26,313 nucleotides of DNA, from the IMG/VR virus record IMGVR_UViG_2687453108_000014, one strand, 5' to 3'. Of the stretch, positions 119 to 24,945 are shown piece after piece. The translations under genes and the position numbers were made by a program. Source of the stretch: a virus. Its lineage: Duplodnaviria > Heunggongvirae > Uroviricota > Caudoviricetes. Each line of letters begins with the position of its first letter. The first letter of the stretch is position 1. The notes beneath the pieces are model-generated. The model was not told the DNA's origin, made no database searches, and saw only the letters and a list, made by a program, of their open reading frames with translations.

Positions 119-146
119 GATTTAAATGGTGCGATAATAGGAACCA
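119..146. repeat. Degenerate copy of the thrW 3' end plus flank; possible distal att junction of the P4-like element
   Basis: ttgatttaaatggtgc-gataatagga matches 24859-24886 (flank plus start of thrW 3' end) with a 1-bp gap, then diverges. Confidence 0.35.
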
Positions 147-285
147 ATAATCGCCACCAACACAATGATTTTAATACATAAATTAAAATAGAAGATTTAA
201 ACTACACACACCCCTATACACATTGGTGAAGGCGTTCGCTTTCCGCGCATTCTCAAGGCAGAAAAAACTTTTTTTGGGGGATAAC

Positions 286-376
286 TGTTCATACTACTCA
301 TTGTGTTTTTTTTCATTAATATTCAAAAAGATATGAAATTAACGATTGATAAGAAGTGAACACTTTACTGTTCACC
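286..376. repeat. Iteron-like octamers (TGTTCAYY / GTGAACA), including an inverted pair; candidate P4-type crr/ori
   Basis: TGTTCATA at 286-293; GTGAACAC at 356-363 and TGTTCACC at 369-376 form an inverted pair with a 6-bp spacer. I recall TGTTCACC as the P4 alpha-binding iteron. Confidence 0.35.
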
Positions 377-675
377 TTGACTGATTAATAAGTGCATAAA
401 AACCTAATTTTTGAGCACGGAAGGTATTTGTTCCTTACCCCATTTTTTCTCTTTAGTCCAGTACAACAAAAAATGCGCCCAACAGAAAACTGTTTTGAAT
501 TTAAATGCAATCGCTTTGTAGTGATTGTAACGTAAGTTGATTTGATGGGTGCGATTTTGTTTAGCGATAATGGTATGTTGTAAAAATCATTTCGTTGCAA
601 TAAAATTGCATCGCTACATTTTATAGACAATATCAATTAAATTTTAATACTCATTATTAATTTTGAGGCTAACAA

Positions 676-1632
676 GTGACTAGTTATTCAAACTTTTCCA
701 ATCAAATAAAAGAAACCATCAATAATAAATTCGATCATGAAATTCATGATTGGGACATTATAAAAAACTCAATCACAACTTTAATAAATAAAAATATCCA
801 TGGTGCAGGTAGAAATATCGTTGATTTTATAGATTTAGGTAACTGGGATTTTATTTCAAACTTTTCCTTTGATGACTCTACAAGAAGACTTGAATTAGAG
901 TGGCACCCCAATGATAAATTCCATATATATATTGAGTCCGTTGTGTTTGTCGAGTTTAATGACACTATATATGCTTTCTTAAAGGGATACTATCACAATC
1001 AGTTATCTCTAAATAGAATATATAATACAAAATGCTCTTCATGTTCATTTGAAAACTCAGGTTCTTATATGGTAGACGTTTATAGAACGGTTAAAAGAGT
1101 AAATGAGACAATCCAGACCCCAAATATAAATTGCTATACTACATGTATTTTAACAAGGCCCGCAAATGGTCATGTTACATCTACAGGCTTCTCACGAAAC
1201 CTCATGGATGCGATAAATATTTCATTAGCAGAGCACAAAATAGCCTCTTTACATAATGAAGTCATGAGTATTGAGGAATATGATCGTGATTCTTTACAAG
1301 AGAAAGGAAATACTGCCAGGAGATATTTAGAATATATTCTCATGCTTGTTAATATTCGTATAATGCATTTAAACAACGTTCAATACCAAGAGCAAATGCT
1401 AGGTAGTTTAGTTTCTGTTATTGAGGCTCTGGACTATGAACCATTAATGAAAAATGATGTTGAAATTACAAAGGACATCCTTAATGCTTGCAGCCACCAC
1501 GGGGGGGTTAGAATTGAAAAGAAAGATGTAATTTTTTCTTTGGAAGTTATTGAAAACTTAATTAAAGCCATAAAGAAAACCGACATAAATAAATTACAAC
1601 TCGATGGGATGTTTAAATCAATTCAAAAATAA
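676..1632 (+). CDS. Hypothetical protein, 318 aa, AT-rich cargo gene of unknown function
   Basis: Long uninterrupted ORF with GTG start preceded by GAGG at suitable spacing; visibly AT-rich versus the neighbouring primase gene; no motif I can recognise. Confidence 0.6.
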   Translation: MTSYSNFSNQIKETINNKFDHEIHDWDIIKNSITTLINKNIHGAGRNIVDFIDLGNWDFISNFSFDDSTRRLELEWHPNDKFHIYIESVVFVEFNDTIYAFLKGYYHNQLSLNRIYNTKCSSCSFENSGSYMVDVYRTVKRVNETIQTPNINCYTTCILTRPANGHVTSTGFSRNLMDAINISLAEHKIASLHNEVMSIEEYDRDSLQEKGNTARRYLEYILMLVNIRIMHLNNVQYQEQMLGSLVSVIEALDYEPLMKNDVEITKDILNACSHHGGVRIEKKDVIFSLEVIENLIKAIKKTDINKLQLDGMFKSIQK

Positions 1633-1736
1633 ACATCATCTAACAATGAATTAGATGCATTTTCCGCTGACGCCTTAGCATATAACTTTTAAATTTTATC
1701 GATATATATTTTGAGATAATTTCCTGTAGCGGATTT

Positions 1737-1757
1737 AAGACCGGCACAGCCGGTCTT
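1737..1757. terminator. Hairpin between convergent genes, possible bidirectional terminator
   Basis: Perfect 9-bp stem aagaccggc / gccggtctt with 3-nt loop, between the stop of the 676-1632 ORF and the stop of the primase gene; no strong U-tract. Confidence 0.35.
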
Positions 1758-1764
1758 AGGTCAG

Positions 1765-4098
1765 TTATTTCGCTGCAAACTCATCGCATTTTGGCAACCA
1801 GTCAGCATTGCTTTCCTCTCTTAGGGCCAGATTAGTCTGCATTCCTTGATTGGTCCGTCGTTTCTCATACTGCAGCCCATATTCCTTGAGCATTAACGGT
1901 AGCCCCTTGCCAAACATGGTCAGACTGAGCGTATTTTTATAGCCGTTAGCCTCCATGTAGACCAGATAGGCATGGTAGAGGTAAGTTCGAGGCTGACGTG
2001 GAACAATATTAGCGTTCCCCATAAACATGCCCGTGGTGTCAGGTAGGACCTCAAGGTAGCCGCAAAAATCAAAAGCTGAATCAGCATCACGTTTGATGGT
2101 GAGCGCTTCATCGGAGTTCTGCTGTGACTGAAGCAATGTCCTGGCACTCATTGGGTCGCTGAAACGCTGCATAAGCTGGCGAACAATCACCGCTAGCTCA
2201 CTGGCAATTTTCTCTTTGAGCTGGGTATCGCGTTCCTCCGGGGCTATCTGGTCGGGGAAATGCAGGATCACCCTTCGGCGTGAAACTCCACCACTACGAT
2301 CAGTGAAGCGCATCGGATTATTGTTCACAGCCAGGATGACCGCCGGGATGTGGGTTGAATAGGCGTTCTGATATTTGGGATCAACGGATACCGCATCGCC
2401 GCCAGTGATGGCTTTTAGTCCGGCCCCGTCACCGCTCCACTTTTCCTGGTCGGGAAGTCGAATCAGTGAAAAACCTATTAACGCAGCTCGTTCTCTTGGC
2501 GACTCAAGCATTTCAATGGTTGCCGAGGTCGCGTTATCTTCACCCGCCAGCATGGTTGCTATTTCAGCAAGAATACTCTTTCCACTTCCGCCAGGGCCAG
2601 TGACCTCCAGAAACAGCTGCCAGTCATAACGGTTAGCCAGCACCATAAACAATGCAGCCAGAATAATGTCCCGTTTTTCAGGATTAAAACCTGCGGCACG
2701 ATCCAGCCAGCGCCAGAATGCCGGGGCATGGGTTTCCAGTGACTCACCGTCAACGGGCTGCGTGTAATCCACCTCGCACAGCGTACGTAACCAGTGCTTC
2801 TTATCGTGCGGGCTGAACAATCCTGTCCGGGTATCGAGCACACCGTTGCGAAATCCGATAAGTTGCCGCGCCGGATTCTGCTGTTGCGGAACGATCAGTT
2901 TGAGGGTTTCCACGAGAGACGCAATTTTCGCGGATGAAAAAGGTGCGTCGAGGCGCTGAAACAGCGCAGCGACATCACGGGCAAAATCGGCGTAATAGAT
3001 AACTTTCCAGGCCCCCGCCTCATAGCGTGAAAGGAGCTGCCCGTTCGGGTCTACTGCCAGTGAATTTTTATAGTGATCCACTACCCTCTGCGCTTTTTCG
3101 CTGACGCTCAGCGCGGTAAATTCAGCTTCGCTCATTGTGTCGAAGGGGCTGGCAACAGCTGGTTTTATTACTTCATGAATTGCATGCCGGGTGGCTTCTT
3201 CGCCGTTTTGCGTGAATGCATCGTTCCAGTCACCAAACACAGGCGGGAGCGCCATTGTGCAATTGCAGGCCCCGGTAACAGCTGCGCCCCTTGTTTGCCC
3301 CGCACCGTTGAGATCGCGGTCAGCAGCAATAATTATCTGGTGCGTTGGGTACTCACTGCAGGCAATGCTCGCCAGGGAAAGGAAATTGACGGACGAAAAG
3401 GCCACCATGACAGCATCGCCAGTCAGATAGTTGATAGTAAGTGCGGTGGCATATCCTTCCGCTATCCAGAGCCGTTTGGCTGCTTTGGCAGTACCTTCAA
3501 CCAGGTAAAAGGCATTCTTAACCTGACCGCCTTTAAGGAAGCATTTGCCCCCATTAGCGTTGATTAACTGCAGATTTACCAGCTCTCCATCTGCATACAA
3601 TGGAACGACAAGATCTCCCGCGCGAAATGCCACACCACCGACTTTATGCATAGCGGTTAATTCCCGGCAAGGCAGTGCAGGAAACCCTTTACTCGTCAGA
3701 TAGGCATTGCCAGTGGTCTGGCGGGACTTATCAAACAAACGGGCAGCCAGCACTGCTGCAGCTTTTCTCCCGTCCTCTTTTTCAGGAGAACCAGATTCAA
3801 GCATTCCCTGAGATACTGGCAGCAGGTTTCCGATAATGCCGTTTATTCTGTCTGCCGCTTCACTAATGCCTACATCCAGTACTTTACTTACAAGCGCCAG
3901 GCCATCACCTGCCCCGCACTGGTTACAGAACCACGTTCCCCGCCCTTCCTGGTCATCAAATCGAAAGCGGTCTTTCCCGGCACAGACCGGGCAGGGCTGG
4001 TGCCGATTTTTCAGTACATTTACGCCCAGCGCAGGTAAAATTCTTGACCAGTGACCCCGAGCTGCTTTCTCAGCCTGGCTAACTTTCATTCCTGACAT
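1765..4098 (-). CDS. P4 alpha-type primase-helicase
   Basis: N-terminal zinc motif CPVCAGKDRFRFDD...CNQCG, central TOPRIM-like region, C-terminal Walker A GPGGSGKS. Start placed at the internal Met (MSGMKVSQ...), which removes the overlap with the upstream ORF. Confidence 0.88.
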   Translation of the reverse strand: MSGMKVSQAEKAARGHWSRILPALGVNVLKNRHQPCPVCAGKDRFRFDDQEGRGTWFCNQCGAGDGLALVSKVLDVGISEAADRINGIIGNLLPVSQGMLESGSPEKEDGRKAAAVLAARLFDKSRQTTGNAYLTSKGFPALPCRELTAMHKVGGVAFRAGDLVVPLYADGELVNLQLINANGGKCFLKGGQVKNAFYLVEGTAKAAKRLWIAEGYATALTINYLTGDAVMVAFSSVNFLSLASIACSEYPTHQIIIAADRDLNGAGQTRGAAVTGACNCTMALPPVFGDWNDAFTQNGEEATRHAIHEVIKPAVASPFDTMSEAEFTALSVSEKAQRVVDHYKNSLAVDPNGQLLSRYEAGAWKVIYYADFARDVAALFQRLDAPFSSAKIASLVETLKLIVPQQQNPARQLIGFRNGVLDTRTGLFSPHDKKHWLRTLCEVDYTQPVDGESLETHAPAFWRWLDRAAGFNPEKRDIILAALFMVLANRYDWQLFLEVTGPGGSGKSILAEIATMLAGEDNATSATIEMLESPRERAALIGFSLIRLPDQEKWSGDGAGLKAITGGDAVSVDPKYQNAYSTHIPAVILAVNNNPMRFTDRSGGVSRRRVILHFPDQIAPEERDTQLKEKIASELAVIVRQLMQRFSDPMSARTLLQSQQNSDEALTIKRDADSAFDFCGYLEVLPDTTGMFMGNANIVPRQPRTYLYHAYLVYMEANGYKNTLSLTMFGKGLPLMLKEYGLQYEKRRTNQGMQTNLALREESNADWLPKCDEFAAK

Positions 4099-4111
4099 TG
4101 TGCGGCCCTCC

Positions 4112-4435
4112 TTAGTGCAGCGCTGGTTTGTTGAGGTGACGGGAACAAAGTTCATCCATGACCGTCATTCCGAGCAGTGAGAGAACCGGACAGGCTTTAA
4201 GCGGCCCCGACTCCATCAGATCCGAAAGCAACGCGCAGGCAATTTCCAGCCCTCTTTGCTGCCCATGCTGGCGCAGATAGAACCCTTCCAGCTCGCGGGC
4301 TATGGCATCTTCAAGTTCAGCGAGCGTCAGGCCGGAATAACGTTCCTGATGATTGCTTAGAGCCAGCCAGGCACAGGCAACGGCACGGCGATACAGAGCG
4401 GCACGAAGTGCCAGAAGAGATTCACAGCATATCAT
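4112..4435 (-). CDS. Hypothetical protein in the P4-like early region
   Basis: ORF co-directional with and just upstream of the primase gene; no recognisable motif. Confidence 0.45.
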
Positions 4436-4656
4436 CAGGCCACCTCCGCATTCATCAGGTCGTCATGGCAGCGTTGCACCACTCCATCCAGTTGCTCTGT
4501 CATCAGATAAATGAGGGAAACCAGTTGTTCGCATTGGGCACCTGCTGGCTTTTCATAACAGTCCTGCAGGGCTGCCATGCCAGTTACATACTCACCCACA
4601 TTGCGTAAATGTTTCAGCCTTACAACATCGTCGTAGGAAATCTCAAACTGGTTCAT
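4435..4656 (-). CDS. Hypothetical small protein in the P4-like early region
   Basis: 73-aa ORF abutting the neighbouring ORFs in an operon-like arrangement. Confidence 0.4.
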
Positions 4657-5210
4657 AGCGTCACCTCCCCGGCAGGCAGCCGTGCAGAAAGGGAGAGTAC
4701 ATAATCTCGGACTAGCAAACGGCGCGCGGAACGCTCATCGCAGGAGACAGTGCGAAGCATACAGATGCGGGGGTGAGTGTCAGCACGGCGGATTGCGGCA
4801 AACACAAAGACATATTGCGGGTGTGACGGGGTGAGGATTGTAGCCATGATGGCAGCCTCCAATAAGTAGCGGTTATTGCTACCACCGGAAACGCCAATTT
4901 CACTGGTGGCAGCCCGAACGGGGTTGGCGTAACCGGCCTTATTGGAAACCGGCCAGCCCGAAGGCTGCCCCGCCCGGACTACCATTATCTCGATAGAACC
5001 ATGGTGTAAGCATAAACACCACAGCCCTGAAAATGGTTGTGCCTGAGCTACGACGTAAAAAAAGACGCAAGGGGCGTCAATTGTCGCCAATAAGTTATAC
5101 GGAACGCCAATTCCGGCTGCCGATTTTGCGACAGCGGAAAAACTATACCTGGAAATGACGACAGTAAGCAAGCCAGAATAAAGGTATTTAATGTATGCAG
5201 GTATCATCAT
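4653..5210 (-). CDS. Hypothetical protein; start overlaps the alpA stop (ATGA); true start uncertain
   Basis: ATG at 5208-5210 overlaps the AlpA stop; composition is not strongly protein-like, so a shorter internal start is possible. Confidence 0.3.
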
Positions 5211-5467
5211 GCATCACATCCCCGCCCACGGGCGCTGATGCGGTCCGCCATCCATGCGCTGACCTCAGACTGTGCCCAGGCGACATTTTTACCGCCAAGC
5301 GGGATCTGCTTCGGAAACGCATCGCGGCTGATCAGGTCGTAAACGGTCGAACGGGACAACCCGCATAAGTGCATCACCTCAGGCAGGCGTAAAAATCGCT
5401 CATGATGGTTCGATACAGGAAATAATGGCGCAGCAGGAGCTGGCGCAGACACAGAAATATTACGCAT
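5207..5467 (-). CDS. alpA: AlpA/Vis-family prophage transcriptional regulator
   Basis: Segment [53 protein letters not shown] is characteristic of AlpA-family HTH proteins of P4-like elements. Confidence 0.8.
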
Positions 5468-6020
5468 TTATCTACCCTCTTTAATTTCCACAACAGTCCG
5501 GATGAATTTATCCGGGTTCAGGTAGTTCCTTATTATGTGTATATAAACCACCTGCGCACGCATTTTTTATTTAGCGTCACATATTGATTTTATGGAATTT
5601 AAAGCCCGATTAAACCATATAAAATGACATAATAAATACCATGCCTGCGGACTATAAATACAGGAGCATTAATAGGAACTACCATTCACCCAGGGTTTAC
5701 TATCCTATGGGTCATTGCACCTGATAGTGCTAACCCCACCGCCAATACAGCAAGGCAGTACAACTTCTACACGAGGCCTTGCATTGCAGGCCCCAATTTC
5801 CGGGCATATTTTTGAATCGCATCCAACTTATAAACATTGGGCCTGCATAAAAACCTTGATATTAAATAACATCACCTTAAATCGTAAAATATATCCGAAT
5901 GAATCCATAAAGAACCGGACAGATCTAGTTTTATAAAAATCAGTATGAAATGCAACACCATGGCCAGAGGCGAAAATGTTATTCCCCGGCAAAAACATGC
6001 AGTCTATTTATGTGCCTGTT

Positions 6021-6233
6021 GAATACTCCTGAATAAGGGTGAATAGTGGTGAGGAGCAAAAAACAAATAGCTACGAGGAATAAAAAAACCACCCATTATG
6101 AAAAAATACCATAAATAATTTTATTCCCATGTGAACAGTTATGAACAGTCGATGAATACTGCCATGCCAACCCTTCACCTTATAACCTTCTGTATTACCT
6201 ATTTTTTTTACCTAAGTGAATAGTAGTGAATAG
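6021..6233. repeat. Cluster of iteron-like octamers (GGTGAATA / GTGAACAG / AGTGAATA) in the divergent control region
   Basis: At least six copies of TGAAYA-type octamers at 6038-6045, 6130-6137, 6141-6147, 6151-6158, 6215-6222 and 6225-6232; they resemble the reverse complement of the P4 iteron. Confidence 0.4.
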
Positions 6234-6400
6234 TTAAGGTAAGTCTGAAACAGCCTTAGTTAAACGAGGCCTTTTCTGGCTAGCCAAAAGAGGTCCGGGG
6301 CGGTTCAGTCTTTGTCTTGTCGCTCGCACAATGGCGTTCAATGGCAGCTTTGTATGCATCACAGCACAATTGACACCACGACAAACCACTAGGTGCTGAC

Positions 6401-7153
6401 ATGACAATCCCAGAACAGAACAATAACCCGATCGTTGAAATTTCTATCCCTGTTTCGACGCAACAGGCGCTTGAGAAAGTGAATGCCACCAAATCTGCAT
6501 GGCTTGAAGCACGTCGTCAGCAAAAAGCGGCAGCGGATAATATTGCGACAATCCGCCAGCGCCGCGCTGAAATGGAAGCCACGACGAACGCCCTGAATGA
6601 GGAGTGGCGCACGCTATTTCGTGAAAGTCAGGGCGTAGTCTCAAAGGAAATGAAAAAACTGCGCACGGAAATTGCGCTGGGACGAGAAACGCTTGAGGAT
6701 TTTGATGAGCTGCTGGCGGCTCAGGAAAGCGAAAATGCACTTTTGCCGCAGGAGGCTGCGGAATTAGCCGGAAAGTATATCCACGCGCACGACACCCTTG
6801 TGGGTATTCGCGCAAAACAAATCTGGGAAGATTTTATGCAGTCGCATGGAAAAGCACTAATCCAGACACTAAGCCTGCTCAAATCAACAATGGGCAGGGA
6901 AGCCAGCGCAGTTGTCGGTGTGGTGCATTCAGTTAATGACCCGGACACACTGCTGAAAGATTTTATTCATAAACATATCACCAGACCGGCTCTGACTAAC
7001 GATGCGATGCCCGAACAGGACCCCGTGTTTAAACTGGCGGGAGTTGCCCCGGATTATGCGGCCCGTCTGGATTTCAGTAATAAACTCTCTCCAGCAGCTA
7101 TGCATAAAATGAAGGTTCGTCAGGAACGTGCTGAGAAGGAGAAAGCAGTATGA
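6401..7153 (+). CDS. sid: Sid-like capsid size-determination protein
   Basis: 250-aa coiled-coil-rich protein first in the sid-psu-delta block; shares the FMQ-HG-AL motif with the adjacent Psu-like gene. Assignment is from position and recalled similarity. Confidence 0.55.
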   Translation: MTIPEQNNNPIVEISIPVSTQQALEKVNATKSAWLEARRQQKAAADNIATIRQRRAEMEATTNALNEEWRTLFRESQGVVSKEMKKLRTEIALGRETLEDFDELLAAQESENALLPQEAAELAGKYIHAHDTLVGIRAKQIWEDFMQSHGKALIQTLSLLKSTMGREASAVVGVVHSVNDPDTLLKDFIHKHITRPALTNDAMPEQDPVFKLAGVAPDYAARLDFSNKLSPAAMHKMKVRQERAEKEKAV

Positions 7154-7701
7154 TGGCCCGAGTCACTCCAGACCAAGCGCTTATCAGTTTTAGAAATGCC
7201 CGTATTCTGTGGGCTGGACATAGTGAGAGCCGAAAAGCCGTTGAACAACAGATAGAATCACTCCTCACTGCCATGGAAAAACCAGCAGATTATGCTCGAC
7301 AGCTCGAATTACAGCGGGAACATCTGGATGTGCTGAAATGGCAAATTAACTGTGCTGCGCGCGAATGCATTTACTCGCAGCATCAACTGATGGAGGCCTG
7401 CACAGAAGACGCTCTCAGCAATTTTATGCAGGCGAATGGAGCAGCCCTGACATCTGCACTGGCTCCGTTCCTGAAGGGGCGCGGAGGGGTTGACGTTGCG
7501 TCCCGTATATTACGCAATGCTCTGGTTCGCCAGCTGGCAATAACACCGCCTGAAATTGCCGGGGATTATCGTATGATTCTGGATGAATCCGGTGTGATGC
7601 CTGACCCCATGATGGTTCGTGATTGCCAGAGCTCTTACACCCCTGCACAACAACTGCGCTTTCAGCAACGTCTGGATTACATTAACGGCATGCAGGAGTA
7701 A
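7150..7701 (+). CDS. psu: Psu-like polarity suppression protein
   Basis: 183 aa; KWQINCAARECIY and FMQANGAALTSALAPFL resemble what I recall of P4 Psu; start overlaps the sid stop (ATGA). Confidence 0.65.
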   Translation: MMARVTPDQALISFRNARILWAGHSESRKAVEQQIESLLTAMEKPADYARQLELQREHLDVLKWQINCAARECIYSQHQLMEACTEDALSNFMQANGAALTSALAPFLKGRGGVDVASRILRNALVRQLAITPPEIAGDYRMILDESGVMPDPMMVRDCQSSYTPAQQLRFQQRLDYINGMQE

Positions 7702-7706
7702 TATTA

Positions 7707-7979
7707 ATGGCACTTAAATGTCCCGAATGCGGTACGACGGCACACGCCAGAACCTCCGCCTATGAAGCACCATCGGTTAAACGCTCATGGTATCAGTGCC
7801 AGAATCTTGAATGTTCCTACACATTTACCGCACTGGAAAGTGTGGATACGATAATCATGAAGCCCCGGCGCAATGAACAGGAATCAGAGAAAGCACAAAT
7901 GCCGGAAAAACAACAGCAAACTCTCAATCGCTATGGCTCCGCGTCAAAGCTGTCAAGCCGTCAGCAAATTCCTGTCTGA
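7707..7979 (+). CDS. ogr: Ogr/Delta-family zinc-finger late transcription activator
   Basis: CPECG...AHARTS...YQCQNLECSYTF matches the Ogr/Delta zinc-finger pattern of P2/P4-type elements. Confidence 0.85.
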   Translation: MALKCPECGTTAHARTSAYEAPSVKRSWYQCQNLECSYTFTALESVDTIIMKPRRNEQESEKAQMPEKQQQTLNRYGSASKLSSRQQIPV

Positions 7980-7998
7980 TTAGCAAAAAAAGCCCACG

Positions 7999-8027
7999 TA
8001 ATCCCGGTCCAGTACTGGGATTTTTTA
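7999..8027 (+). terminator. Rho-independent terminator after ogr/delta
   Basis: Stem AATCCCGG / CTGGGATT around a 7-nt loop, followed by TTTTTT. Confidence 0.6.
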
Positions 8028-8388
8028 CGCCTTTTCCCTGGCTGGCCTGAGAGCGCATGAGTGCATGTCTATAGCGCATGAAAACGCATGATTCTCATGC
8101 ACCATTTTTGACGCGAAAGCCCTTGTGTGGTGGCTTCTGAGACGATTTGCGGAATGCATGAAAACCAGTCTGTTAAGCGAAGCGAGCAGGCGTGGGGGGC
8201 TGCGCGCGCTAAGGGGTTAGATTATAAAATATCAAACGCCGGTGAGATCCATTATTGTGGAACCACCCGAAGGAAGTGTAGAGGCGAAAGTACCCAAAAT
8301 AATTTTGCAAATTATTTAGAAATGAACTGAGCGCTCGAAACGAAATATAATTTCGAGCACCCCAATTAGCAGTTATATTTTTAATGTA

Positions 8389-10207
8389 TTAAACAGGATA
8401 AAAACCAGAGCTTCCATTCTTATTTAAGTTATGGATTTTATTTGCATCATTAATTTTTATTTGGAACGTCGGACCTTTATTCTCAAGAATTACAATCTGG
8501 AAATTATAGTCCCTTTTGATTAATGCGTGATAAAATGAATCACTGAGACTGACGCTATTAACATCCGATAGAGAACCCCCTCTATCTTTATCAAAGTGCG
8601 TCACTAATGGACTATCAAGCACAACAAATCCAATGAATGGATTCCCTTTTCTTGATAAAAATTCCGCAAAGCAAATGGTAAATATAGCATGCATTACTGC
8701 ACGGGTACCTTTACCAAACATTCCTCGGCGTTTCCCATTGATATTAAAGTCATATGTATCTTCGTCAAATCGCACTTTGTTATCTTTAGAATTTTCAAAA
8801 TTTATATCATTCAAAAAGTCTTGCATCGCTATTTCTATATCATACAAATCAGCTACTGTTAAGGAGTCAAAGTCCTCGGCGGAGTATTTAAGTTCGTCAA
8901 CATCATCTTCTTTATCTTGTAATGAAGATAGAATGCTATGTTTTGTGTGATCCATTAAAAGATTGTCTTTATATTCATAAAGTGATTCAAGAGATGAATG
9001 TATTGTTTTATATTTTTATCTTCTAACGTCTTAAAATCACTTTTTTCTGATTGATAAATTTCATTAACATCATTTTTTCTTAACATAATTAATTCATGTT
9101 CGCGAACATTAGATCCGATTGATTCAATTAATCCTTTCAGCTGGCTTTTGATTTTCAATTTTTCTGCATTACACGACAAAAAACAATCATCATATGATAT
9201 TTCATTTTCTTTTTTTGCGGTGTATTACAGAACTCACAATAAATATCTGCAAAATTATTTAAATAGAAATTCGCCTGTGATACAACATCTATTCTTTGTA
9301 GATCTATAAAGTATTGGTCTTTAAGAAGACTAAATCTTTCAATGAGTAATGATAAGTATTTTTCCCTGTCACTGATTGAATATAATTCATCACTTAACTC
9401 TTTTAATAATTGCTTCTTATCATCAAGTGCATCAACAATACCTTTCAATATATCTTTCGATGATTCAATATCTTGCTCTACTTTCTCAAGTTCTCTTGAA
9501 ACAATGACTTGATCATATTCAGGATAAATTAATTGCGCTTTCAATTCCTCATAAATATTTGCAATTTGATTTTTTTAAAAATATCTTGCTTTTTTATTTG
9601 GTTTTTCTGCTAAGGAGTTAGTATCATCTCTCTGAGTTAAAAGGAATTTAAATTCAGACTTTCTTTTTGTCTCCTCGCTAGGAATATCAGAAAGAATTAA
9701 CGACTTCTCAGTTAACACTCTTAATTCATCAATACAAAAAAATTCAAAAACATTATTAAGATTAAATTTATGAAGAGTATTACTTAAGTTTGTTCTTACT
9801 TTAGCCTCTTTGAAATTCAACCTACCATAAAAGTATGATGAAAAACTCTTTTTAGACGAAGCACTTTTGGAAAAAACCATCAACAGATTAGCTTCACTAA
9901 CATTTTCAATACTCGAATCATATAATCTGTAATGGGCGCTATCCTGAAGAGACCTCTCAATTGTCATTACCCTACCTTGAAAATTAAATTCCAGATAGGC
10001 TAAATCATAACCTTGAGCATGATCGATATCTTTATTTTTTAGTTTTTCACTCCCTAATAAATATCGAATCAAATAATATATGTATGTTTTTCCAGAGTCA
10101 GAACCACCATATAAAATAGTCAATTTAGAACCAAATTCAATTATAGCATCTAATTTATTGAATCCGGTTACCTTTATTTTTCTGAACGTAAAAAAATTGT
10201 CATTCAT
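8389..10207 (-). pseudogene. SMC/ABC-like ATPase (component 3), split into four ORF fragments by one in-frame TAA and at least one frameshift
   Basis: N-terminal fragment has an SMC-type Walker A (FRKIKVTGFNKLDAIIEFGSKLTILYGGSDSGKT); the middle is coiled-coil-like; the last fragment has a Walker-B-like FVVLDSP. Fragments 9578-10207 and 9155-9574 are in the same frame separated by TAA at 9575-9577. Fragments 2 and 3 use TTG starts. Confidence 0.5.
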
Positions 10208-10658
10208 AATTAAATTCCATATCATATTTGCCAATTTTATTTTTTATAATTGATTGCAACTGCTCATCAGGAATATCACTATATAACTTAACCACCAAAT
10301 TTATATTATGCTCCATCTGCGCAACATATTCATTATGTAGAGAATTTGTAAATGCATATGTTTTTTCAGAAGCTTTATATACAAAACCACGATGTGTATA
10401 AATTTTTGAGGCTAGTTCATAGCCTTGCAACAAAGCCAATGATTCTAAAACAATCTCTCGTTTTAGGGCTAACTGAGCATCTCTACGGGGTATTGGAGGA
10501 TGAAGACTAATCTCTTCAGGTAAAAAATCCTTAAGATTTACTAAAATAAAATCAAAACAAATAAGCCGTTCAAGGCTTAATGAAGAAGGATAAATAGCGA
10601 CGAGCACTTTCGCCATTCGACATGCCACTTCTAAACTTGAATTATAAATTCTAACCAT
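10200..10658 (-). CDS. Small protein (component 2), about 152 aa from the internal ATG
   Basis: ATG at 10656-10658 overlaps the upstream stop (TAATG) and its own stop overlaps the ATPase start (ATGAATGA); no recognisable motif. Confidence 0.5.
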   Translation of the reverse strand: MVRIYNSSLEVACRMAKVLVAIYPSSLSLERLICFDFILVNLKDFLPEEISLHPPIPRRDAQLALKREIVLESLALLQGYELASKIYTHRGFVYKASEKTYAFTNSLHNEYVAQMEHNINLVVKLYSDIPDEQLQSIIKNKIGKYDMEFNYE

Positions 10659-11275
10659 TATCTCACCGTCCAAATTACTTCACCATCATTAACCAAATGA
10701 TGGCATATTCCTTTTTTATCATTTGCTTCACATATTTTTGATAGTACTGAATGTGCAATTGGTGTCAGAACAGCCTGCTTCAAGACTGCATTACACCTAA
10801 TAAATGCATAATTATGGTCTTCATAAAAGACGGGTTCAATTGAAGATGAAATGTAACATTTCAATGCTTTGAATACATCATCTTTAAATACTTCGCGGAC
10901 AAAAACCTCAAGCGAAGATGCAAAATAAAAATCATTTCTACTATTATTAAAGTGTCGTCTGTATGGATCATCAAGCTCTAAGAAAGAACTATAAGTTTTA
11001 TTTCCATGCTCTGAATAGGCTTGAAGCAGTGCATTAACATATACAGACTCTTTTTTTGAATTGTATGTTGGAATTTCATTTGGAGGGATTCTCACGACAT
11101 ACAGCTCGTTAAAGTACTTAAAATAAAGGTGTGTATTTGCAATATCATTTAAAATCAATGATAAGGGTAGAGAGTAAAAAATACTAAAATCAAAATCCTC
11201 AATATATTTTTTTATTTCATCATCTAATGGAATATCAATCTTTTTAGTTATTTTTTTGAAATTGCTGAATCCCAT
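10658..11275 (-). CDS. Hypothetical protein, probably the C-terminal part of the upstream nuclease-like gene
   Basis: Overlaps the upstream ORF by 28 nt in another frame exactly at an A7 run (11251-11257); its own RBS is weak; a 1-nt change in the run would fuse the two into about 340 aa. Confidence 0.45.
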   Translation of the reverse strand: MGFSNFKKITKKIDIPLDDEIKKYIEDFDFSIFYSLPLSLILNDIANTHLYFKYFNELYVVRIPPNEIPTYNSKKESVYVNALLQAYSEHGNKTYSSFLELDDPYRRHFNNSRNDFYFASSLEVFVREVFKDDVFKALKCYISSSIEPVFYEDHNYAFIRCNAVLKQAVLTPIAHSVLSKICEANDKKGICHHLVNDGEVIWTVR

Positions 11276-11664
11276 GAATCAAGGACTGCTTTTTTAAGCT
11301 CGTTTTTATTTTTCAATAAATTAGAAAATGTAGTAGATAAATCATAGGGTGCCACAAAAAAGTACTTCTGAGGGATGGGATAATCACCATTCAGAGTAAA
11401 ATAGATAAGTTTTCCAAACTCAACTACAACATCAGAGAACCCTAAACTTTTTTTGTACAGTTTGCATTGATAATTATCCCAAGAATAACCTTCTACGTTA
11501 GGATCCGATTTATATCCAACAACGTCTCTACCTTTATCTCCAGCTCCTCCCAAACGTTCGCTCCACGGGTAATCATCTGATTTACAGACAATAAGCCAAT
11601 CATGGACAAATACCTCCCATTGTTCATCATCCCATGTCAATATTTCCGAAAGTGGTTGAGACAC
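11248..11664 (-). CDS. PD-(D/E)xK (Mrr/Cap4-like) nuclease-domain protein (component 1, N-terminal part)
   Basis: ERLGGAGDKGRDVVGY ... NYQCKLYKK resembles the G-x-GD-x-G-x-D ... QxK catalytic core of Mrr-type nucleases; GTG start 7 nt after AAGGAG, directly downstream of the integrase stop. Confidence 0.5.
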   Translation of the reverse strand: MSQPLSEILTWDDEQWEVFVHDWLIVCKSDDYPWSERLGGAGDKGRDVVGYKSDPNVEGYSWDNYQCKLYKKSLGFSDVVVEFGKLIYFTLNGDYPIPQKYFFVAPYDLSTTFSNLLKNKNELKKAVLDSWDSAISKK

Positions 11665-11667
11665 AAA

Positions 11668-12849
11668 TTAACTCCTTTTTAGTCTTTCAAATATCAAATT
11701 ACTGTACCAGTCCATCATAGACTTCCTTCCACTAAAATATTGAGCATGGTTATAAGTCCCCCTAATAGAATTTTTATCTACATGAGCCAACTGGATTTCA
11801 ATCCAAGCACTCTCAAAACCTTGCTCATGCAGGATTGTAGAAAGGGTATGACGAAAACCATGTCCAGTGACTTTTCCTCCATACCCAATACGCTTAATGG
11901 CTTGATTTATACTCGCTTCGCTCATTGGCCTATTCGGATCGTTCCGCCCTGGAAAAACATAACGATAGTTCCCTGTCATGATCTTGAGTTCATTGAGTAA
12001 ATCTACCGCTTGAGATGATAAGGGCACAAGATGTGGCCTACGCATTTTCATCCTTTCAGCAGGAATTTCCCAAATAGCGTTATCCAGATCAAATTCTTGC
12101 CATAATGCCGCGCGTAATTCGATGGTTCTCACACCCGTAATCATCAGTAATTTCGTGGCTATCTGGACAAGCTTACTCCCGGAGTAACCCTCTAAGGCAC
12201 GTAGAAAATCAGGTATCTCATCAGCTTTTAGGAATGGGAAATGATTGGATTGGTGTACTTCGAGAGCGCTGGAGAGATCAGCCGCAGGATTGTACTCCGC
12301 CCTACCCGTTGCAATTGCGGGGCGGTTCACTTCGGAGCAACGCTGCCGCACTTTGCGCATTTTCTCCAACGCACCACGTTTCTCAATTTTACGCAGAACG
12401 TTCAGCAGCTCTAGCGGTTTAATCTCTCCCACAGGCCTTGTTCCGACATAAGGAAAAATGTCGTTCTTAAACGCTTCCATGATGTCTGATGCATATCCCG
12501 CCGACCATTTAGCAGATTTAAGTTGATGCCACTCTCTGGCTATCTTTTCGAAGGCGTTCTCTGACTCTGTTTGCATAGCTAGCTTTTGCTCTTTTCGAAC
12601 CTCACTAGGGTTCTTTCCTTCTGCCACAAGTTTTCGAGCTTCATCACGACGGGAACGAGCATCGGCAAGGGTGATCGTTGGGTAAACACCAAGCGAGATC
12701 ATTTTGGGTTTGCCGGCATAGCGATAGCGGAACCGCCAACTCTTGCTTCCATTAGGTTCTATAAGTAATGACAACCCTAGCCCATCTCCAAATGTATAGG
12801 CTTTAGCTTCAGGCTTAGCGCGGCGAATCTGCATATCGTTTAAAGGCAT
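11668..12849 (-). CDS. int: P4-type tyrosine integrase
   Basis: P4-type N-terminal arm-binding region (MPLNDMQIRRAKPEAKAYTFGDGLGLSL...) and catalytic HxxR (GHGFRHTL) and Tyr (RGTYNHAQY) motifs; lies next to the partial thrW repeat. Confidence 0.9.
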   Translation of the reverse strand: MPLNDMQIRRAKPEAKAYTFGDGLGLSLLIEPNGSKSWRFRYRYAGKPKMISLGVYPTITLADARSRRDEARKLVAEGKNPSEVRKEQKLAMQTESENAFEKIAREWHQLKSAKWSAGYASDIMEAFKNDIFPYVGTRPVGEIKPLELLNVLRKIEKRGALEKMRKVRQRCSEVNRPAIATGRAEYNPAADLSSALEVHQSNHFPFLKADEIPDFLRALEGYSGSKLVQIATKLLMITGVRTIELRAALWQEFDLDNAIWEIPAERMKMRRPHLVPLSSQAVDLLNELKIMTGNYRYVFPGRNDPNRPMSEASINQAIKRIGYGGKVTGHGFRHTLSTILHEQGFESAWIEIQLAHVDKNSIRGTYNHAQYFSGRKSMMDWYSNLIFERLKRS

Positions 12850-12904
12850 GTGTATAGGAATCCAGACCGAACAGGAACATATACACAATCCTATACACAT
12901 TCAG

Positions 12905-13010
12905 TACCGGATTCTACTGGATGGTTACGGACTACTATGGACTTAAAAGAATAAAAAATGTTATAAATCAGAGATTTTATGGACTAATACGGACGTTTGA
13001 GGAAGTTGAG
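12905..13010. promoter_or_regulatory. Candidate integrase arm-type binding repeats
   Basis: Repeated TACGGAC / TATGGACTA motifs between the int start and the att core. Confidence 0.3.
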
Positions 13011-13012
13011 AT

Positions 13013-13058
13013 GGTGCCGATAATAGGAGTCGAACCTACGACCTTCGCATTACGAATT
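13013..13058 (-). repeat. 46-bp partial thrW 3' end, the att junction between the two elements
   Basis: Exact 46-bp identity to 24870-24915 (3' portion of thrW); diverges at 13059. Confidence 0.85.
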
Positions 13059-23990: not shown

Positions 23991-24855
23991 ATCAAAAATT
24001 TATTCAGCAATGCAGAAAATGACGAACCGGCGTCATGAGGAAAACTGGAAACTCAGGGCAGAAGCATGCAGAAAAAAAGGGAAACCTGTTCCAGAATACA
24101 CGCCAAAACCAGCGTCCGTTGCAACGAAGGCTACGCATCTTTCATTTATAAAGGCCCTGCTAAGAGCCGCAGAGCGTGAATGGAAAATGCTCGATAAGGC
24201 ACCAATTATTAAAGTGCCTCAACCAAAGAATAAACGGATCCGCTGGCTGGAGCCCCATGAAGCACAAAGGCTGATTGATGAATGTCCGGAGCCATTAAAG
24301 TCTGTTGTTGAATTTGCACTGGCAACAGGCTTAAGACGCTCGAACATCATCAACCTTGAATGGCAACAAATAGATATGCAGCGCCGGGTGGCATGGATAA
24401 ACCCGGAAGAGAGTAAATCAAACCGCGCAATTGGCGTTGCGCTGAATGATACTGCATGTCGCGTATTGAAAAAACAAATCGGTAATCATCACCGTTGGGT
24501 ATTTGTGTACAAGGAAAGCTGTACCAAACCAGACGGAACGAAAGCGCCAACAGTAAGGAAGATGCGGTATGACGCAAACACAGCCTGGAAAGCGGCGCTG
24601 AGACGGGCTGGTATTGATGATTTCAGATTTCACGACTTGAGACACACCTGGGCAAGTTGGCTGGTTCAAGCCGGAGTCCCGTTGTCAGTGTTACAGGAAA
24701 TGGGAGGCTGGGAGTCTATCGAAATGGTTCGTCGATATGCTCACCTTGCACCTAATCACCTTACCGAACACGCACGGCAAATAGACTCGATCCTGAACCC
24801 ATCGGTCCCAAATTTGTCCCAGTCAAAAAATAAGGAAGGTACTAATGATGTGTAA
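23939..24855 (+). pseudogene. int: P22-type tyrosine integrase lacking about 80 N-terminal residues
   Basis: ...[39 protein letters not shown]... through [39 protein letters not shown]; homology begins abruptly at the N junction with no native start or arm-binding domain; the gene ends 14 bp from thrW. Confidence 0.8.
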
Positions 24856-24869
24856 CTTATTGATTTAAA

Positions 24870-24945
24870 TGGTGCCGATAATAGGAGTCGAACCTACGAC
24901 CTTCGCATTACGAATGCGCTGCTCTACCAACTGAGCTATATCGGC
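24870..24945 (-). tRNA. thrW: tRNA-Thr (anticodon CGU), thrW
   Basis: Reverse complement is GCCGATATAGCTCAGTTGGTAGAGCAGCGCATTCGTAATGCGAAGGTCGTAGGTTCGACTCCTATTATCGGCACCA, a full cloverleaf with CCA. Confidence 0.95.

Follow-up and report, generated by a model that had tools for sequence, protein, structure and literature searches.

Candidate ori and crr replication sites of a P4-like satellite prophage in Escherichia coli O157:H7

The alpha protein of satellite phage P4 binds iterated repeats (iterons) at two separate sites, the origin (ori) and crr, both of which are needed in cis, and melting, unwinding, and priming of the DNA follow. The question considered here is whether two clusters of similar repeats in IMGVR_UViG_2687453108_000014, an IMG/VR virus record of 26,313 nucleotides (the whole of which is called the window), constitute such a pair of sites. 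The clusters, at 262–380 and 6130–6234, lie on either side of a gene for an alpha homolog, and we consider it probable, at roughly 85%, that they are the bipartite cis-acting replication sites (ori and crr) of a P4-like satellite prophage, an assignment that is based on sequence comparison.

The reference is the annotated P4 genome X51522, in which ori occupies 9086–9809, with six type 1 repeats at 9310–9413 and three type 2 repeats at 9176–9205, while crr comprises two 120-bp direct repeats at 4291–4590 that contain ten type 1 repeats; crr is also annotated in X05623. The window is colinear with the plus strand of X51522, and its positions 1737–5404 are 71% identical to P4 4609–8961. A first-pass annotation of the window had proposed that the clusters may be P4-type ori and crr, and this proposal is upheld by the colinear alignment, in which both fall at the places corresponding to the annotated P4 elements.

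The right-hand cluster as an origin

Window positions 6128–6236 align base by base with P4 9308–9416, which holds the six "ori type 1 repeats" between ORF88/vis and sid. The core in the window (6130–6234, minus strand) is composed of TGTGAACAGT at 6130, TATGAACAGT at 6140, GATGAATACT at 6151, the inverted ACCCTTCACC at 6170 (plus strand), and two copies of AGTGAATAGT at 6215 and 6225. The iterons are close to helically phased, with a slot spacing of 10/11/19/45/10 bp versus 10/11/20/45/10 bp in P4; the orientation pattern (three, one inverted, two) is the same, and 167 bp lie between the end of the last iteron and the start codon of sid, compared to 168 bp in P4. Slots 4 and 5 are separated by an AT-rich spacer (6180–6214) that aligns with the P4 spacer and contains CTGTATTAC and a T-run, both conserved across ten lineages; by analogy with P4, this spacer is presumed to be the DNA-unwinding region. 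On the basis of the spacing, the alignments, and the architecture score given below, 6130–6234 is assigned as the ortholog of P4 ori1.

Like its P4 counterpart, the window ori lies between alpA/vis and sid and is accompanied by a cognate alpha with a conserved C-terminal origin-binding domain. The two differ in the distance from alpA to ori, which is ~380 bp longer in the window, and in the iterons themselves, as only slot 1 of the window keeps GTGAACA, the others being ATGAACA, ATGAATA, CTTCACC (inverted), and GTGAATA twice.

The first-pass annotation had described at least six octamers of the form TGTTCAYY/GTGAACA within 6021–6233. Such a count is obtained with a relaxed TRTTCA core, which occurs eight times in the right-hand cluster (at 6020, 6030, 6040, 6132, 6142, 6153, 6217, and 6227), but not with the exact forms, since TGTTCAYY is absent there and GTGAACA is present once (6130–6136). 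TGTTCA itself has two minus-strand copies, at 6132 and 6142, and there is one inverted CTTCACC, at 6172. The expected enrichment over shuffled sequence likewise fails for the exact octamer, as TGTTCAYY occurs 6 times in the window against 4.18 expected, with at least 6 in 28 of 100 shuffles. For TGTTCACC with at most one mismatch, the whole window gives 24 occurrences against 18.8 expected, and 24 is reached in 12 of 100 shuffles.

The part of the enrichment that does stand is the clustering and the arrangement of matches to a 10-mer position-weight matrix, constructed from the 16 type-1 repeats annotated in X51522 and applied with a threshold of at least 8 bits. The window holds 21 matches, six of them inside 200 bp at 6038–6234. 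This clustering is reached in none of 2000 dinucleotide shuffles of either 6000–6250 or 5468–6400, and a single whole-window shuffle out of 500 has even five matches in any 200 bp. We have also applied an architecture test, in which iteron slots at the P4 offsets and strands are scored with 2 bp of slack and compared with shuffles. The ori architecture at 6130 has a score of 58.5 bits, relative to a shuffle mean of −12.6 (sd 5.4, maximum 6.0), and the crr architecture at 284 has a score of 31.1 bits, relative to a mean of −6.3 (sd 5.6, maximum 12.6). Each of these positions is the best one on its own strand in the whole window. By the matrix count, the left-hand cluster is weak, with two matches, a number that is reached in 111 of 2000 shuffles of 146–675 and in 10 of 2000 shuffles of 260–380.

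Four other matrix matches (at 2178, 2320, 2535, and 2812; 10–14 bits, within 640 bp) are located inside alpha and were considered as a possible third site. They are treated here as incidental coding sequence, because only the match at 2320 is common to P4, in the conserved AVNNNP codons. The P4 ori2 lies inside alpha and has no iterons.

The six-slot layout is widespread. From GTDB genomes, 80 alpha-encoding loci were collected (designated below by L numbers), and the 53 with enough upstream sequence were scanned for the ori layout. The six slots are present with the same spacings in ~47 of these 53 P4-like loci, which belong to Enterobacter, Citrobacter, Kluyvera, Kosakonia, Serratia, Yersinia, Erwinia, Rosenbergiella, and other genera. 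The G-to-A and C-to-T variants of the iteron core are found in other lineages as well, and in the crr of P4 itself. In alpha relatives of ~40% identity, dense clusters of ATGAACA- and CTGAATA-type repeats are situated directly 3′ of alpha (at ~8400–8500 in L060 from Morganella and at ~8400 in L065 and L067 from Yersinia), which suggests that the iteron core drifts from G to A across the wider alpha family.

Upstream of the ori core, at the position of the P4 "ori type 2 repeats", the window has a phased array (6019–6058, plus strand) of four units with a 10-bp period, tTGAATActc, cTGAATAagg, gTGAATAgtg, and gTGAGGAgca. The P4 type 2 repeats (three copies of CCACTTAAAG) are thus replaced by a TGAATA array that resembles the type 1 iterons, its third copy being a good type 1 variant (ACTATTCACC, 14.5 bits). 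The array is conserved in L073 and L057. A comparison of the type 2 position in P4 (L001), L006, L029, L041, L042, and L066 shows that each lineage has its own 10-bp-phased array of 3–6 repeats, ~80–130 bp upstream of ori slot 1, which in several lineages is of the TGGCAA type.

Origins of the P4 type are similar to those of iteron plasmids and to the pri-rep-ori modules of phage-inducible chromosomal islands (PICI) in that an AT-rich melting region is flanked by short, phased direct repeats to which the replicon's own initiator binds. They differ in that a second iteron site (crr), kilobases away, is needed, and in that primase, SF3 helicase, and winged-helix parts are fused in one initiator protein. 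The Pri-Rep proteins of PICI differ in sequence from P4 alpha (PMC6092414).

The left-hand cluster as crr and the cargo beside it

Positions 262–380 (plus strand) align end to end with both of the P4 120-bp crr repeats and with the crr units of nine other P4-like elements, and by blastn this segment is 70–75% identical over ~117 nt to the crr units of more than 25 loci. The inverted pair noted in the first-pass annotation is confirmed at its place, TGTTCACT at 355–362 (minus) facing TGTTCACC at 369–376 (plus), as is TGTTCATA at 286–293 (plus). These are the three good iterons left in the unit, each of at least 8 bits, while slot 2 (ACTACTCATT at 293–302) and those in the middle are degenerate. 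Besides the first iteron, the unit retains the A-run/T-run with which it opens and, at its 3′ side, the convergent pair GTGAACA-N6-TGTTCACC, where the best-conserved columns of the alignment of the crr family are found. The middle segment (TTAAC) matches the lineage of L073, L057, and L054. Judging from these alignments, 262–380 is one P4-type crr unit, partly eroded, and homologous to a single P4 direct repeat.

The crr of P4 and that of the window have in common a unit of ~120 bp that opens with an A-run/T-run, the use of the same iteron motif as in ori, a tandem iteron pair at the 5′ side and a convergent pair at the 3′ side, and a location between alpha and the core of the attachment (att) site. 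The number of units is different, as P4 has two direct repeats ~60 bp apart and the window one; a search for a second unit found none in 1–1764 (threshold at least 20), nor in 1633–1764. A single crr repeat is sufficient in P4, for which the minimal ori1 is 123 bp. The distances are also different, since the P4 crr is located ~50 bp from the alpha stop codon and 194 bp from the att core, whereas the crr of the window does not directly follow the alpha terminator but is 1388 bp from the stop codon, and is 117 bp from the att core.

Among ~60 P4-like loci for which the state of crr was recorded, a single unit adjacent to alpha is the commonest arrangement (~25 loci), followed by two adjacent units (~16). 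In ~13 loci crr is displaced by 0.7–3.1 kb from alpha, among them L073 as well as L057, which has a weaker unit at ~1.4 kb. In 3–4 loci (L009, L033, L059) there is cargo between two crr units. L054, from Kluyvera genomosp. 3, has a degenerate crr unit that abuts the alpha terminator.

In P4, L005, and L006, crr abuts the alpha terminator, and the last iteron is ~50–60 bp from the alpha stop codon. The window has a terminator hairpin at 1732–1762 (minus strand), found by a terminator scan, that is homologous to P4 t-alpha and aligns with the P4 terminator at 4604–4628. The separation of 1.39 kb between crr and alpha is explained by a cargo insertion of 1355 bp (381–1735), which entered the ~20 bp that separate this terminator from the last crr iteron. 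The insert has a GC content of 31%, against 52% for alpha, and it has no blastn match in the other P4-like loci.

The insert carries a gene for a protein of 318 amino acids (676–1632, plus strand), which has no match in Pfam, PADLOC, or NCBIfam. It belongs to a small orphan family whose members occur on an ICE-like region, on an integrase-adjacent island by proBA (the neighbourhood of thrW), and on a Proteus chromosome. The structure of the protein is predicted confidently (pLDDT 87.6), and the model has an N-terminal beta domain and a C-terminal helical domain that appears HEPN-like; a Foldseek search of the model against the PDB gave nothing significant.

In about a quarter of the surveyed loci, varied low-GC cargo is present either in the interval from alpha to crr or in the spacer of a crr pair, with crr always on the att side. 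The cargo types are an Mrr-type nuclease (Mrr_cat), an AAA_15 ATPase, DUF3800 with PIN_12, a pentapeptide-ion channel protein, a PUA-like protein with a metallophosphatase, and a SIR2-like protein, the last in the alpha-crr slot of both L073 and L057. Loci with cargo between alpha and crr are L008, L012, L027, L032, L045, L047–L050, L053, L066, and L073. A minor hotspot downstream of alpha has been published, and the window is similar to it in having low-GC foreign DNA 3′ of alpha inside an att-delimited element, the difference being that gene 676–1632 is in no known defence family. The source paper for this hotspot does not mention crr. Here the insertion point is placed exactly where the alpha terminator meets crr, which is mildly new.

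Proposed mechanism and competing explanations

The alpha gene (1765–4098, minus strand) is intact and encodes a protein of 777 amino acids with primase, SF3 helicase, and origin-binding parts, presumed to be the initiator that binds the iterons. It is 72% identical to P4 alpha, with conservation of the zinc ribbon, the Toprim motif EGYATA, and the Walker A motif GPGGSGKS, and residues 671–770 match PDB 1KA8, the C-terminal domain of P4 alpha (E = 9e-46). The cnr homolog (4112–4435, minus strand) corresponds to P4 ORF106 (DUF5375; Pfam E = 1.7e-49), with which it is syntenic, a copy-number regulator of the oriI replicon.

The knowledge on P4 replication reportedly stems from Flensburg and Calendar (1987), Ziegelin et al. 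(1993/1995), Tocchetti et al. (1998/1999), and Yeo et al. (2002). By analogy with P4, alpha would bind the iterons through its C-terminal winged-helix domain and assemble at ori, and a second site for its binding, crr, would be needed in cis. Alpha would then open the AT-rich spacer, unwind the DNA by means of the SF3 helicase, and prime synthesis with the N-terminal primase, while Cnr may modulate or limit the copy number. Statements in support of this mechanism for P4 are found in PMC2777425 and PMC6092414.

A number of observations weigh against the assignment of the clusters as replication sites. None of the six ori iterons is an exact TGTTCACC, the ori score is near the bottom of the layout-bearing loci (58.5 bits versus 63–103 in other lineages), and crr keeps only 3 of 5–6 iterons. 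L054, the alpha of which is 95% identical to that of the window, was expected to have the same ori, but no six-slot ori1 layout is present in its 14-kb locus, where other genes occupy the upstream region. The loss of even one iteron is reported to have inactivated P4 oriI (Tocchetti et al., 1999). The fragmented Lamassu cargo described below shows some decay of the element. In O157 Sakai, neither circularisation nor replication nor packaging of Sp2 was seen, whether or not mitomycin C was added (PMC2669165, Table 2), and the resident P2-like prophage of that strain is defective (PMC2669165).

In an alternative scenario, the clusters are true orthologs of ori1 and crr that have become dead relics of a decaying, domesticated prophage, with iterons below the affinity that alpha needs. 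In favour of it, five of the six ori slots deviate from GGTGAACAGT, two to three crr slots are lost, Lamassu is split into six open reading frames (ORFs), Sp2 is inactive in Sakai, and the strain is without a competent P2 helper. However, alpha and cnr are intact, and the negative result in Sakai may reflect a lack of induction or excision instead of a dead origin. In addition, the variant slots TATGAACAGT, GATGAATACT, and AGTGAATAGT recur in L073 from Scandinavium and L057 from Enterobacter, whose alpha proteins are 94% and 82% identical, respectively, to that of the window; both loci are low scorers alongside the window and have nearly the same variant slots. The iteron slots of the window are 90% identical to those of L057, against 51% between the slots, and 95% identical to those of L073, against 78% between the slots. 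This better conservation of the slots argues that the degenerate iterons are a trait of the lineage and not O157-specific damage. Iterons of the ATGAACA and GATGAAC types are present in other lineages, and the annotated repeats of P4 itself include TATTCACC and TCTTCACC. We therefore regard the loss of function as a serious but rather unlikely scenario, and we take the weak iterons to be the probable working set of this alpha lineage rather than a product of random decay.

It is far less likely that the repeats are mainly transcriptional operators, for the promoters of sid and the left operon or for the cargo gene, bound by AlpA/Vis, Delta, or another regulator. The right-hand cluster does lie in the divergent promoter region of alpA and sid, and the phased arrays just upstream of ori vary in sequence from lineage to lineage, as a regulator site would. 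Such a role could fit the array at 6019–6058 but not the ori core or crr, as the six-slot core coincides with the annotated ori of P4, the motif is found again in crr, at a distance from any promoter, and is constant across lineages that have differing regulators. Chance occurrence of an A+T-rich hexamer in A+T-rich intergenic DNA would be in line with the lack of enrichment of the exact TGTTCAYY and with the two to three matrix matches of the left-hand cluster, but local dinucleotide shuffles never reach the observed scores of the right-hand cluster or of the architectures. Furthermore, the colinear alignment with P4 and dozens of elements includes landmarks other than iterons, namely the A6/T8 tract and CTGTATTAC, and coincidence can in practice be disregarded.

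The element, its boundaries, and wider meaning

Over its first 14 kb, the window shows 100% identity to chromosomes of E. coli O157:H7 (e.g., TW14359 and JEONG-1266). The part from ~129 to 13058 is, on sequence grounds, a P4-like satellite prophage of the Sakai "Sp2" type, integrated at thrW in E. coli O157:H7. The left boundary, on the alpha side, is a short copy (tggtgcgataatagga, 129–145) of the 3′ end of tRNA-Thr thrW, matching thrW at 24870–24886 and the long, 46-bp copy of the 3′ part of thrW at 13013–13058, which constitutes the right boundary on the integrase side. On the crr side of the core are two tandem integrase arm-type repeats, ACTACACACA and CCTATACACATT (201–224, plus strand), the counterpart of the "attP arm sequence repeats" of P4. 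The arm-type repeat CTATACACA occurs in the whole 26-kb window only at 214 and 12891, and relatives of it are found near int, with TATACACA also at 12880 and an inverted copy at 12849. This mirrors the situation in P4, whose attP is flanked on either side by annotated arm repeats.

L005, a thrW-integrated P4-like element from strain 103605 that is without gene 676–1632, shares the left flank of the window up to exactly position 145 and then diverges, and it has ACTATACACAtatCTATACACA at the same place as the arm repeats of the window. From the att core and the arm repeats it follows that the element extends over ~129–13058, with both crr and gene 676–1632 inside it. The earlier supposition that this gene belongs to the element is in this way borne out by the att core, the arm repeats, and the divergence of the L005 flank.

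An att-like site at 537–555 (TTGATTTGATGGGTGCGAT), with 16 of 19 matches to the flank and att at 117–135, was evaluated as a tandem remnant. As the score is marginal, being reached in 23 of 500 shuffles, and the arm repeats at 201–224 match the arm on the integrase side, the site was rejected as probably due to chance; it could alternatively be the vestige of an older junction. The left flank (1–142) shares 94% identity with the end of Escherichia phage phi458 (44297–44439) and is similar, too, to the 3′ end of the truncated lambdoid integrase beside thrW (24840–24869), which indicates that the "chromosomal" flank is itself derived from a phage. To the right of the element are insertion sequence (IS) fragments, a lambdoid remnant, and tRNA-Thr thrW at 24870–24945.

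The gene content was established from the RefSeq annotation and from Pfam, PHROG, and Rfam scans. Pfam identifies the P4 core genes alpha, DUF5375/cnr, Ash, AlpA, Psu, Ogr_Delta, and int, and all seven members of the SatelliteFinder core set (int, psu, delta, sid, alpA, ash/epsilon, and alpha) are present inside the att boundaries. The divergent region that holds ori is bordered on the left by the alpA/vis homolog (5207–5467, minus strand; Phage_AlpA, E = 1.2e-19), which is syntenic with P4 ORF88, and on the right by the sid-like gene (6401–7153, plus strand), which has 23% full-length identity to P4 Sid (E = 5e-12) and matches phrog_6165 (E = 5e-96). The tyrosine integrase is encoded at 11668–12849 on the minus strand (RefSeq annotation; Arm-DNA-bind_3, Phage_int_M, and Phage_integrase in Pfam).

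Compared with P4, psu and delta have exchanged places. At 7150–7979, sid is followed by psu and then delta, versus sid-delta-psu in P4, and delta encodes a short Ogr-like protein of 90 amino acids. The swap is a known variant, present in 20% of elements (PMC8628076).

The Ash-domain protein (4653–5210, minus strand) is separated from cnr by an additional ORF of 73 amino acids. Its gene is overlapped by a C4/CI-type RNA and isrK, which Rfam places inside or beside the Ash ORF as a C4 antisense RNA (4902–4989, 84 bits) and isrK (5058–5135, 72 bits), both on the minus strand; this is the CI-RNA-type immunity region of P4-like elements. The main hotspot between psu/delta and int (8389–11664, minus strand, 31% GC) contains Lamassu in six ORFs, with LmuA in two pieces, LmuC intact, and LmuB in three, and looks like a pseudogenised defence system.

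The present analysis thus describes what is otherwise the expected replication apparatus of a known family, the mildly new aspects being the cargo-entry junction beside crr and the lineage-specific iterons. A more far-reaching proposal combines the two. In it, the alpha terminator/crr junction and the inter-crr spacer would be a recurrent, specific entry point for cargo, and this alpha lineage would have re-specified its iterons to ATGAACAGT/GTGAATAGT, with the phased TGAATA array replacing the type 2 repeats. We put this forward tentatively, and consider it doubtful that both parts hold jointly.

If the entry point is real, crr works at variable distance from alpha and ori, and the gene for the 318-residue protein with the HEPN-like domain would be an undescribed anti-phage or addiction gene in the slot. 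If the iterons have been re-specified, the lineage would form a separate replicon-specificity group, and several P4-like satellites could be present per cell without cross-talk. Large surveys of P4-like satellites (PMC8628076, PMC9122126, PMC13586616) do not discuss ori or crr, and the term "crr" is absent from their text. The assignments made here provide base-level ori and crr coordinates for a prophage that is present in ~300 sequenced O157:H7 and O55:H7 genomes, where both sites are unannotated, and the six-slot ori template and the crr-unit template are possible markers for P4-type replicons. They also show that the element does not end at the alpha gene, as crr and cargo lie beyond it, which matters for the delimitation of satellites and for the mining of their cargo genes.

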